Below, one piece after another: positions 4,797 through 7,015 of a stretch of DNA of 22,489 nucleotides. Below the pieces are notes generated by a model, which saw only the letters and a list, made by a program, of their open reading frames with translations, was not told the origin of the DNA and searched no databases. Numbering within the stretch: position 1 is the first letter of the stretch; every line of letters begins with the position of its first letter. The DNA lies in IMG/VR virus record IMGVR_UViG_2778261450_000009, positions 1 to 22,489 of that record; one strand, given 5' to 3'. The translations under genes and the position numbers were made by a program. Origin of the DNA: a virus (lineage: Duplodnaviria; Heunggongvirae; Uroviricota; Caudoviricetes).

Positions 4797-5420
4797 TTAC
4801 CCTTTCACTTCTGAAAGGGATTTTTTGCCAAACGTCACTTCATTCATTGACATAAGTATGCTGTCTTTAATGTATTCGCACACTTCATTAATTTTTGCGT
4901 TGGTATCCACATGCGAAAATGTCCTGGCCTGATAACCATCAACCGAAATCGTCATGTTGTCGCCATCAAGTAACAGAATACTCACTGTAATATTCACACT
5001 TACAGACTGGCGGGGATCATCATCAACAACCGTATATAAATTAAAAGTAACCCCATCCTGAAAATCTACCTGCAAATCCTCCGGTTTCTCACAACAACTA
5101 TCATGAGAAAGATAAACATAGGGATGGGAGTTACCGTCAATATCCAGCCATCGTGGTTTCGGCAATGCCAGTGAGTCTTCATAGGTCTTGACCAGCCTTT
5201 TTGCCATATCCCGCAGTCGCTGGATGTACTCCTGTCTGGCCTCCTGAATTTCAGCCTGCTTTTCCCGAATGTCTGCATATGTGATCACAGTCTCAATTCT
5301 CCTGTATACAGAAAAATAAACCATAATAATAGCCAACCGGGAAAAGATGAAAAATGCCATAACAGAACAGGCATTGCGCACGGATAAAAAAATGCCCGTC
5401 ATGAGACGGGCCCAAAGCAT
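4797..5420 (-). CDS. Hypothetical protein, start ambiguous (ATG 5420, ATG 5360 or GTG about 5288)
   Basis: Long ORF with a coiled-coil-like stretch (REKQAEIQEARQEYIQRLRDMAKRL) and an acidic beta-rich C-terminal part. The N-terminal extension is hydrophobic (MAFFIFSRLAIIMVYFSVY); only the GTG start has a clear SD (AGGAGA). Confidence 0.45.
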   Translation of the reverse strand: MLWARLMTGIFLSVRNACSVMAFFIFSRLAIIMVYFSVYRRIETVITYADIREKQAEIQEARQEYIQRLRDMAKRLVKTYEDSLALPKPRWLDIDGNSHPYVYLSHDSCCEKPEDLQVDFQDGVTFNLYTVVDDDPRQSVSVNITVSILLLDGDNMTISVDGYQARTFSHVDTNAKINEVCEYIKDSILMSMNEVTFGKKSLSEVKG

Positions 5421-5470
5421 TCATCGTATAAGAATTAGACAGCGTTTAATTGTATGGTTACTACCAGAAT

Positions 5471-5504
5471 GATTCGTCAGCCTGCAACGTAATTCTGACG
5501 AATC
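5471..5504. repeat. 10-bp inverted repeat GATTCGTCAG / CTGACGAATC with a 14-nt spacer, inside an ORF-poor region
   Basis: Read directly from the sequence. Confidence 0.5.
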
Positions 5505-5732
5505 ACAGACCCCGAAACAGGCAGCGACTCATTCTGATAAAAACCATCCGATGATACACAACGTTAACAATGTAAAAAACAGCACCGAAACTGTAATCAG
5601 TCAGATATTACAGAATGAAGAACAACAAAGGCGCTTGCAAAACCTGTTCTCCGCGAAACTCGCCAGTGCTGAAACGATATGCCTCATTTGTTTACCAGTG
5701 CGGGTAGCAGAAATTACCCTCACACATAAAAT

Positions 5733-5801
5733 GCTGACTTCCGGAATCACACTGCTGACCGGTTATTACTGAATCAACAAACTGATCACCAGGAAGTCAG
5801 C
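5733..5801. repeat. 10-bp inverted repeat GCTGACTTCC / GGAAGTCAGC with a 49-nt spacer
   Basis: Read directly from the sequence. Confidence 0.45.
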
Positions 5802-5840
5802 ACTGACCTTTCCGGTGGTATTAACACCCTGTGAACACAA

Positions 5841-5859
5841 AACGACCACCTTTAGGTCG
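5841..5859 (-). terminator. Putative terminator hairpin about 110 nt downstream of the methyltransferase gene
   Basis: Stem ACGACC / GGTCGT with a 7-nt loop, followed on the minus strand by GTTTTGTGTT. Weaker than the other terminators. Confidence 0.35.
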
Positions 5860-5968
5860 TCACAAATACTAACAATGATTGTGTGGGCATCAAAAATATA
5901 TTTGGTGTTCAGTTTTAAATATGTGTATACATCTGTATCAGAAATATACAACTTATATCATCACTGAA

Positions 5969-7015
5969 TTAAAAATCTTTCGTTATTTCTCTGACCGTCT
6001 GATTAAAACGTTCCTCTTCCAGTTCCACGCCAATCGCCCTGCGTCCCAGCGACAGTGCCGCTTTTATTGTCGACCCCGACCCCATAAAAAAATCTGCGAC
6101 CAAATCGCCTGGACGGCTGCTGGCAGTAATTATCTGACGCAACATATCCGCCGGTTTTTCACAGGGATGCTTACCCGGATAAAACTGCACGGGCTTGTGC
6201 GTCCAGACATCCGTATAAGGAACGACAGCCGATACGGAAAAATAACGCCGCAGTGATTTGTATTCCTCCAGCAGGCTGGCATATTGCCGGTTCAGTTCGC
6301 TGTATGTGCTGACCAGCTGGTGGTGTGGCTGCTCCAGTTCACCGCGCTGGTGTTTTTCTGTCACCACACGTGCAAACAGCGCCTGCAGTTTACTGTAATC
6401 GGCCTCATTCGGTAACTGCCACTGACTGGTACCAAACCAGTGCGAAGCCATGTTTTTCTTTCCGGTGGCTTCTGCTATCTGTTTTGACGTTATCCCCAGT
6501 GATTCGCGCGCATCACGAAAGTAAGAAATCAGCGGGGCCATGACATGCTGCTTAAGCTCGCGCCCCTTTGCTGCATAACCGTCACTTTTGGGCTGGTATG
6601 GCCCCTGATAATGTTCGGCAAACAGAATGCGCTCTGTTGCCGGGAAATACGCCCGCAGGCTTTCCTTGTTGCACCCATTCCAGCGTCCGGACGGCTTCGC
6701 CCAGATAATGTGGTTCAGCACATTAAAGCGTTCACGCATCATGATTTCGATATCAGATGCCAGGCGATGACCACAGAACAGGTAGAGACTTCCGGCAGGT
6801 TTCAGTACCCGCCAGAACTGTGCAAGACACTGGTCCAGCCATTTCAGGTAATCATCGTCCCCCTTCCACTGGTTATCCCAGCCCTCGGGCTTCACTTTAA
6901 AGTATGGCGGGTCTGTGACTATCAGATCGACAGAGTTTTCCGGTAAGGTCCGGATAAATTCCAGGCAATCAGCGTTGATTAACTCACAACTGGATATTTT
7001 TACAGTATTAGCCAT
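5969..7015 (-). CDS. DNA methyltransferase, beta-class (N6-adenine or N4-cytosine), orphan
   Basis: DPPY catalytic motif (LIVTDPPYF) near the N-terminus and an AdoMet-binding FxGxG motif (FFMGSGST) near the C-terminus, which is the beta-class motif order. No adjacent restriction endonuclease recognised. Confidence 0.85.
   Translation of the reverse strand: MANTVKISSCELINADCLEFIRTLPENSVDLIVTDPPYFKVKPEGWDNQWKGDDDYLKWLDQCLAQFWRVLKPAGSLYLFCGHRLASDIEIMMRERFNVLNHIIWAKPSGRWNGCNKESLRAYFPATERILFAEHYQGPYQPKSDGYAAKGRELKQHVMAPLISYFRDARESLGITSKQIAEATGKKNMASHWFGTSQWQLPNEADYSKLQALFARVVTEKHQRGELEQPHHQLVSTYSELNRQYASLLEEYKSLRRYFSVSAVVPYTDVWTHKPVQFYPGKHPCEKPADMLRQIITASSRPGDLVADFFMGSGSTIKAALSLGRRAIGVELEEERFNQTVREITKDF

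Follow-up and report, generated by a model that had tools for sequence, protein, structure and literature searches.

A gene-free gap in the late operon of an Escherichia coli lambdoid prophage as a probable degenerate tRNA cassette with conserved RNA structures

Several kinds of RNA have been described from the late region of lambdoid phages, including transfer RNAs (tRNAs), small RNAs (sRNAs) and short terminated transcripts. The tRNAs ileZ-argN-argO, encoded upstream of stx in 933W and Sakai Sp5, lie between Q/PR' (the antiterminator gene and the late promoter) and the lysis genes and read rare codons ending in A; the phage tRNAs of the Sakai Stx2a phage are expressed from a transcription start located between tR' and stx2AB, and its late region yields short terminated transcripts in abundance (PMC7547250). 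AgvB and AsxR are members of convergent sRNA pairs found at the moron site, AsxR being antisense to the stx2 transcript (PMC4104026, Tree et al., 2014), and the Pas sRNAs of enteropathogenic E. coli (EPEC) are found in the neighbourhood of TerB, DUF3927 and holin genes (PMC8550237; bioRxiv 10.64898/2026.05.13.724894). Lambda 6S RNA/tR' and StxS are promoter-proximal structured RNAs with intrinsic terminators upstream of the late genes and override by Q, and such terminated by-products, as StxS illustrates, can act as sRNAs (PMC7547250). This report describes a non-coding gap of 680 bp (positions 5289-5968) in the late operon of an E. coli lambdoid prophage, IMG/VR record IMGVR_UViG_2778261450_000009; the whole stretch of DNA that was analysed, 22,489 nucleotides, is termed the window.

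The gap is probably a degenerate phage tRNA operon cassette ("moron") within the late operon, whose retained terminators would insulate the downstream late genes. The object is ordinary in kind, a relic tRNA-Thr/tRNA-Gly operon, found in an unusual state of decay. Homology to two tRNAs, helices that are conserved and covary on the minus strand and a final terminator of canonical sequence are directly observed. In the order of transcription, the parts of the cassette are:

5894-5968, minus strand: AT-rich block just past the methyltransferase stop codon, containing the palindrome TGTATACA
5866-5893, minus strand: candidate sigma-70 promoter P1 (-35 TTGATG at 5893-5888, 16-nt spacer, TGn and -10 TAGTAT at 5871-5866)
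5805-5858, minus strand: leader hairpin, from RNAalifold and pair counts over 15 distinct sequences
about 5728-5803, minus strand: pseudo-tRNA-Thr, termed hairpin C, assigned by homology to tRNA-Thr and covering an inverted repeat with a 49-nt spacer
5678-5722, minus strand: 3' remnant of tRNA-Gly(UCC), that is T-arm, 3' acceptor strand and start of the trailer, the 5' two-thirds being gone
5574-5671, minus strand: module 2, a Y-shaped trailer defined by its consensus fold and found in all lineages including the intact L014 type
5461-5540, minus strand: module 3, a long hairpin of ~24 bp with one bulge and a variable apex, from an inverted-repeat search
5412-5460, minus strand: single-stranded AU-rich linker with the conserved motif A[C/U]GAUGAAUG at 5427-5418
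5386-5411, minus strand: strong intrinsic terminator T4, GCCCGUCUC AUGA... GACGGGC followed by A and U7, from a terminator scan

The window is 99.7% identical to the prophage of strain EC11 across 5300-6050. A stretch of the window type occurs in 22-25 of 5426 complete E. coli genomes and a diverged form in 14, and after pattern scans of IMG/VR the set comprised ~27 distinct cassettes, which fall into three or four lineages. A collection of phage records gave no match by megablast and, in distant mode, matched the methyltransferase end alone; a pattern scan of genome contigs returned matches in unrelated taxa that looked like chance, with one 3.1-kb contig (L030) matched on both strands.

Among the relatives the cassette follows a common plan: AT-rich block, hexamers TTGATG/TA(G/A)TAT, leader hairpin with helices P1 and P2, hairpin C, tRNA-Gly(UCC), module 2 with its U-run, and finally module 3 with its ~24-bp hairpin, AU-rich linker and terminator ending in U7. 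A tRNA-Gly is annotated in this gap in every relative with a methyltransferase-linked cassette, and in other related loci the interval from the methyltransferase to the shared terminator module contains tRNA-Ile/Arg or lacks an annotated tRNA. In the L014 type, the intact form, tRNA-Thr(UGU) and tRNA-Gly(UCC) are separated by 3 nt, and modules 2 and 3 and then a holin gene come after them. The L003-type relative and others aligned with it contain further terminator-like hairpins between T4 and the holin gene. At the C-type loci the cassette lies 480 nt from the methyltransferase, behind tRNA-Ile and tRNA-Arg, which identifies it as a unit of its own. In contrast to lambda 6S and StxS, it is placed away from the Q gene and is identical in phages with different Q types, and therefore it is not a Q-specific PR'/qut unit. 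Like the late-region phage tRNAs it occupies the slot from Q/PR' to the lysis genes, and the related loci hold tRNA-Ile/Arg, tRNA-Thr plus tRNA-Gly, or tRNA-Gly alone; it differs from them in that the tRNAs of the window are non-functional relics and in the addition of a structured leader and two conserved trailer modules, neither described nor annotated in the sources searched.

A sequence-only reading of positions 5421-5968 had reported two 10-bp inverted repeats and a hairpin with a U-rich run, assigned to no strand, and had named their conservation in related prophages as one point to be checked. All three are present in the sequence. Both inverted repeats are perfect over 11 bp rather than 10 (5470-5480/5495-5505, arms separated by 14 nt; 5732-5742/5792-5802, arms 49 nt apart and extending to ~13 bp with one bulge), and two such repeats per 621 nt lie above a rough chance estimate of ~0.05; the third structure is a 7-pair hairpin (5861-5841, minus strand) followed by TTGTGTT. 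Structure and covariation analysis against homologous prophages, which the same reading had called for, showed conserved and covarying minus-strand helices, the structures being kept with compensatory base changes. Two of the three hairpins, however, turn out to be something else: a tRNA acceptor stem in one case and, in the other, an alternative fold specific to the window.

The tRNA is recognised in hairpin C, which is identical to positions 34-73 of the L014 tRNA-Thr(UGU) at 31/39 positions (local score 20 against 7.4 +/- 1.4 for shuffles, 0/3000 as high) and whose 5' strand GCTGACTT matches the tRNA-Thr acceptor strand GCCGACTT. Judged by this homology, the inverted repeat around the 49-nt spacer represents the acceptor stem of a tRNA-Thr that has died and been reshaped into a long hairpin, the stem having been lengthened because the old 3' strand of the T-stem now pairs with mutated positions 8-13; UUUUAU (5731-5726) comes directly after it. 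The stem is kept in three lineages, with two pairs changed on both sides and four on one. Since the derived, non-tRNA features of hairpin C are common to all three, the compensatory changes that separate the lineages arose after the death of the tRNA, which argues for maintenance of the hairpin itself.

For tRNA-Gly, the remnant aligns to the 3' part of the tRNA plus its trailer with a score of 17 against 7.4 +/- 1.4 for shuffles (0/2000 as high), and relatives carry a tRNA-Gly at exactly this position with homologous flanks on both sides. Both elements are thus relics by homology to intact syntenic tRNAs and lack a detectable cloverleaf: ARAGORN predicted no tRNA anywhere in the window, and nothing in 5250-6020 matched the Rfam model for tRNA (RF00005) even at E <= 10; the homologous tRNA-Gly of the related locus C5 scores 52.5 bits with that model. 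tRNA-Gly has been damaged repeatedly in independent lineages (L003, L011, L009, L010, L020, L022, L043-L050); in the damaged loci ARAGORN misses it, PGAP still calls some, and leader and trailers are intact. Module 2, module 3 and the leader with helices P1 and P2 were also considered as further tRNA relics and rejected, their alignments to four phage tRNAs being at chance level.

The helices of the leader and hairpin C, taken together, are paired in 97% of cells, with both-side changes in 8/20 pairs compared with 4.6 +/- 1.3 in shuffles (3/500 as high) and at most 2 pairs in slid controls. Within the leader, helix P1 (5858-5855 with 5808-5805) shows both-side changes in 2/4 pairs, and helix P2 (5850-5845 with 5819-5814) is 100% paired with both-side changes in 4/6. 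The apical loop includes the invariant motif TGTTCACAG at 5837-5829, which in the window reads TGTTCACAGGG to 5827. The reported hairpin at 5841-5861 consists of two strands that in all lineages pair instead with their downstream partners in P1 and P2; its own pairing is absent from the relatives, and it was rejected as a conserved fold in favour of a window-specific alternative to the leader.

Folding of the minus strand across 5383-5548 gives a minimum free energy of -61.4 kcal/mol and z = -5.9 against shuffles, and across 5722-5865 (leader plus hairpin C) z = -5.0, 0/200 shuffles being as good in either case; the middle segment with module 2 (5572-5700) folds less convincingly (z = -1.95). 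The plus-strand folds are ~10 kcal/mol less stable. In addition, G-U pairs occupy many helix positions and A-C pairs, the form that a G-U pair of the opposite strand would take, number about one per element; this excess, together with the more stable folds, indicates that the molecule under selection is the minus-strand RNA. All meaningful structure thus lies on the minus strand, the sense strand of the late operon. A plus-strand terminator for a convergent or antisense sRNA was sought, and the search yielded just a weak AT-rich hairpin at 5884-5911.

Module 2 is closed by an 8-bp stem, CAGCACUG (5671-5664) with CGGUGCUG (5587-5580), around internal hairpins; across the cassette lineages the closure is CAGCACUG/CAGUGCUG, then a U-run. 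Its consensus fold has both-side changes in 8/22 pairs, and the closing stem and the U-run are invariant. With the UUUUUU at 5579-5574 behind it, this trailer is classed here as a putative, atypical terminator, T3. The end of the cassette is more canonical: T4 has 7 pairs (6 GC), a 4-nt loop and U7, as the sequence definition of an intrinsic terminator demands, it was reported by the scan in the window and in relatives, and all 7 stem pairs are kept in 15 sequences. At its aligned position the relatives CEA224S and GF31 carry a different, non-homologous GC hairpin with a U-run, suggesting that termination at this spot matters. The linker ahead of T4 is not coding, since the reading frame that crosses its motif and the terminator is shifted by a 1-nt indel in the B type relative to the window.

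In module 3, 97.5% of cells are paired over 15 sequences, 3 pairs have changed on both sides and 12 are invariant; in the L014 type the whole apex has been replaced and both arms kept. The repeat at 5470-5505, with its 14-nt spacer, arises from the 3' arm of this hairpin, which can also pair locally, and it is the long-range pairing, not the local one, that is conserved and covaries. A conserved ~24-bp duplex with one bulge, located upstream of the lysis cassette and free to vary at its apex, would also suit an RNase III site that cuts the tRNA-bearing leader off the late/lysis mRNA or sets the stability of that mRNA; going by the title of a reference listed in PMC7547250 (its number 49), RNase III processing sites are reportedly known from the lambda late transcript. 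The hairpin might just as well stabilise the RNA or act as a pause element, and RNase III cleavage as its role is improbable.

That the gap is decaying junk, a former tRNA operon without function in a defective prophage whose structure persists through recent common ancestry, would fit the death of both tRNAs, the independent damage to tRNA-Gly in L003, L011 and all C-type loci, the rarity of the cassette, the frameshifted terminase gene of EC11 and the many stem positions that never vary. It accounts poorly for the compensatory double changes that keep the helices of leader, pseudo-tRNA and module 2 across lineages that are ~25% different, for the excess of G-U over A-C, which points to selection on one RNA strand, for a module 3 apex swapped with both arms kept, and for the substitute terminator at the position of T4 in two relatives. 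We regard this explanation as doubtful.

The elements upstream of the leader are conserved to different degrees. The AT-rich block falls one base short of 100% identity in 6 relatives whose neighbouring sequence is ~75% identical, and the C-type loci carry a ~75% identical block 480 nt away from the methyltransferase; the block is therefore part of the cassette rather than of the methyltransferase gene, and may serve as an operator or as an upstream element of the promoter. More broadly, the 3' end of the methyltransferase gene and the AT-rich block (window 5888-6037) are identical in all but one base across otherwise diverged relatives, and the same sequence recurs (92.7%) in three O155 strains (L007 2400-2650) beside a baseplate gene, under the annotation "hypothetical protein"; the pattern suggests a hotspot of recombination or a regulatory site that is conserved. 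The hexamers of promoter P1 are kept in three lineages (TAGTAT or TAATAT), ~5/16 positions of the 16-nt spacer are retained, and transcription is predicted to start near 5859. P1 is a putative promoter, proposed from these sequence features; it was ruled out as a Q-dependent late promoter (PR') by the identity of the cassette across phages with different Q types.

The put RNA of phage HK022 has two adjacent stem-loops close to its promoter, and the leader resembles it in gross architecture alone (promoter, two adjacent conserved stem-loops, terminators). Were the leader a cis-acting antitermination RNA of this type, polymerase would become resistant to T3 and T4. The second stem-loop is, however, demonstrably a dead tRNA, and a lysogen would be killed by constitutive transcription through the terminators into the lysis genes, so that this function is very improbable.

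Under the preferred reading, that of a degenerate tRNA cassette, the ancestral unit would have comprised a promoter, a 5' leader hairpin, tRNA-Thr(UGU), tRNA-Gly(UCC), the trailer T3, the 24-bp hairpin, the AU-rich linker and T4. In the window both tRNAs would have died, tRNA-Thr turning into a long hairpin and tRNA-Gly losing its 5' two-thirds. In the lysogen T3 and T4 would stop transcripts arriving from the weak cassette promoter, the methyltransferase or unmodified PR', and so would keep transcription out of the TerB cassette and of the holin and lysin genes that follow it; once the prophage is induced, Q-modified RNA polymerase would read through both terminators. The tRNAs being relics, the window would retain the transcription architecture and any by-product RNAs only, of which two may be expected: a leader RNA of ~130 nt ending at the pseudo-tRNA hairpin and UUUUAU, and a 3' fragment with T4 at its end. 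The activity of the promoter, termination at T3 and T4, read-through by the Q-modified polymerase and the existence of any RNA product are all inferred here.

Several points weigh against this reading. The 85-nt, multi-branched "loop" of T3 is unusual in intrinsic terminators, and T3 shows just the "stem plus U6" part of what defines one. Promoter P1 matches the consensus at just 8/12 positions, lies under the threshold of the promoter scan and was not reported by it, and the L014 type is without a clear -35 element. The invariant 12-bp core of the module 3 stem is uninformative on pairing, and with three or four lineages the covariation counts rest on few independent events. The cassette occurs in only ~40/5426 complete E. 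coli genomes, none of them a well-studied strain, and the frameshifted terminase gene in the near-identical EC11 prophage means that the whole element may be decaying.

A further view holds that the modules are trans-acting, Hfq-dependent sRNAs, as at the same kind of site in prophages of enterohaemorrhagic E. coli (EHEC) and EPEC. The candidates would be the leader with the pseudo-tRNA hairpin, or the linker of module 3 with T4 released by processing, and their targets, mRNAs or sRNAs of the host or the phage, would be bound by pairing at the conserved loop TGTTCACAGGG or at the motif GAUGAAUG in the linker. Its appeal lies in the long U-tail of T4 with an AU-rich stretch upstream, typical of Hfq-binding RNAs, in the sequence motifs conserved in unpaired regions and in the compensatory changes that kept hairpin C after the tRNA had died. 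Of the features of Hfq-dependent sRNAs, the gap thus has a terminator with U-tail and conserved unpaired motifs; no promoter of module 3 was found, and a search across lineages for a conserved one gave none. In comparison, the 3'ETS-leuZ sRNA sponge is the trailer, or 3' external transcribed spacer, of the glyW-cysT-leuZ tRNA operon; it has an intrinsic terminator at its end and can remain as a stable RNA; modules 2 and 3 resemble it as tRNA-operon trailers, and no sequence relation is expected. The region downstream of PR' is, moreover, a known sRNA hotspot (PMC4104026), and the Pas sRNAs adjoin TerB and holin genes.

Sequence comparisons with the described sRNAs speak in the main against this view. 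An Rfam search, which the sequence-only reading had also proposed, was run at gathering and permissive E-value thresholds on the window, C5 and six other loci; no family matches the gap, and the matches obtained were the tRNAs of the relatives plus C4 and isrK elsewhere in the window, none falling on the leader or modules 2 and 3. The AgvB and AsxR models (RF02702/RF02703) gave 14.6 bits in the window and 16.3 bits in C5 for AgvB, against a gathering score of 56 and stemming mostly from the terminator, and no match for AsxR. The gap shares with AgvB/AsxR the intergenic niche downstream of a moron coding sequence in the PR' transcript and the general form of short RNAs with a GC hairpin and a U-run; its elements differ in being sense to the late operon and longer, without homology and without a convergent partner terminator on the plus strand.

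The comparison with the Pas sRNAs covered PasA, PasC and PasD2, taken from E2348/69 by published coordinates, with PasB and PasD1 outside it. By the blastn criterion of the authors who described them there were chance-level matches of 9-14 nt, and no similarity of the cassettes to the PasA/PasD2 and PasC loci was found (E > 0.2). One stretch stands apart: CCACCGGAAAGGTCAGTGCTGACT, 24 nt at 5796-5819 (minus strand) across the junction of the 3' strands of leader helices P2 and P1 with the pseudo-tRNA, matches PasA positions 55-77 (L012:4916-5000, minus strand) at 22/24 positions, a score reached by 1-2 of 5000 shuffles. This match, which favours the sRNA view, makes shared ancestry with PasA possible; in PasA, however, the stretch forms the terminator loop and 3' arm, and PasA, like AsxR, is antisense to late genes, unlike the sense orientation of the gap elements. 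With no significant Rfam family, no BLAST similarity to PasA, PasC or PasD2 and a module 3 that has no conserved promoter of its own, dedicated trans-acting sRNAs are rather unlikely here. We hold no higher expectation for a related proposal, tentatively put forward, that the dead tRNA-Thr was reused: leader and 13-bp hairpin would form a new structured RNA of ~130 nt, with modules 2 and 3 as further motifs, regulatory in the lysogen as sRNA, sponge or attenuator, and PasA would perhaps derive from the same junction. The suggestion that the region encodes a regulatory leader or small RNA accordingly stood in part, in that a structured 5' leader and terminator-ended modules are present; their origin is a decayed tRNA operon and no dedicated sRNA gene was recognised.

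The absence of genes from the gap extends further than had been proposed. The ORF (open reading frame) at 4797-5420, of 207 amino acids, borders the gap downstream, and the phrog_5091 profile begins at its residue 45, placing the start of the gene at GTG 5288 and the edge of the gap at 5289. A ribosome-binding site, AGGAGA (5303-5298), precedes the GTG at 5288-5286, which is most likely the true start; the ~130 nt upstream of it are non-coding and include the strong terminator. With the ORF 4797-5420, and likewise with the RefSeq start corresponding to 5402, the gene appears to be drawn too long, and its annotated N-terminus crosses an intrinsic terminator. The elements next to this start are:

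5286-5374, minus strand: start region of the next gene cassette, from promoter scan and PHROG profile alignment
5374-5350, minus strand: weak terminator-like hairpin within the start region of the downstream cassette
5353-5326, minus strand: promoter-like site from the promoter scan

Five small ORFs within 5289-5968 were compared with the relatives and none is kept, stop codons or shifts of frame interrupting all of them. Pfam and PHROG gave no significant family for any of the five; the two Pfam hits returned (E 0.04-0.07) are at chance level and far under the curated cut-offs. The description of the stretch as poor in ORFs was therefore correct and even understated, the gap being 680 bp long with no conserved ORF among the five. 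A type I toxin-antitoxin pair or a small-protein gene, the former also raised by the sequence-only reading, could be sought in a hydrophobic ORF of 43 amino acids (5293-5424, minus strand) and an ORF of 73 amino acids (5551-5772, plus strand). Neither has a visible ribosome-binding site upstream, the tested ORFs are broken in relatives and match no family significantly, the frame through the 43-amino-acid ORF differs between lineages, and there is neither a conserved small hydrophobic ORF nor a convincing antisense terminator on the plus strand, so that such a function is scarcely credible.

The genes and other RNA elements around the gap are as follows:

9156-9539, minus strand: Q antiterminator (Pfam Phage_antitermQ, E = 5.5e-52)
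7812-8975, plus strand, opposite to the late genes: ompC-like porin between the Q gene and the remaining late operon
7166-7363, minus strand: 65-amino-acid winged-helix ORF with weak TrmB/MarR-like matches, directly upstream of the methyltransferase
5969-7015, minus strand: N6_N4 DNA methyltransferase (E = 3e-44)
13811-13897, minus strand: C4 antisense RNA (Rfam, 80.9 bits)
13922-13998, minus strand: isrK Hfq-binding RNA (Rfam, 56.9 bits)

Downstream of the gap the minus strand encodes in turn the phrog_5091 protein, TerB, DUF3927, two holins and the endolysin. The order Q, methyltransferase, gap, TerB and holins on this strand places the gap inside the late operon, read right to left. The porin, which resembles nmpC of the K-12 prophage DLP12, would be crossed antisense by late transcription. 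The 65-amino-acid ORF is kept alongside the methyltransferase in all relatives and could encode a controller protein for the methyltransferase or the cassette promoter. In the near-identical EC11 prophage the large terminase gene (L001 1-961) is annotated as frameshifted, and the prophage may be defective. The adjoining matches to C4 and isrK (13811-13998), both above the gathering score, suggest an antisense-controlled antirepressor/immunity module of the P1/P7 or Gifsy type in a lambdoid prophage.

With these results the structures are assigned to a strand, the start of the neighbouring gene is corrected and a puzzling gene-free stretch of 680 bp is explained as a recognisable object. Annotators gain three conserved RNA structures, since the leader, module 2 and module 3 appear, from their alignments, to be conserved RNA structures named in no database, the function of each being uncertain. 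If the retained hairpins are functional, the cassette would be a clean case of a dead tRNA recycled as structural or regulatory RNA in a prophage, and its RNAs would enlarge the growing list of sRNAs that have arisen in the antiterminated late region; should the hairpins be terminators only, it illustrates how the insulation of inserted cassettes keeps the lysis genes silent in lysogens.

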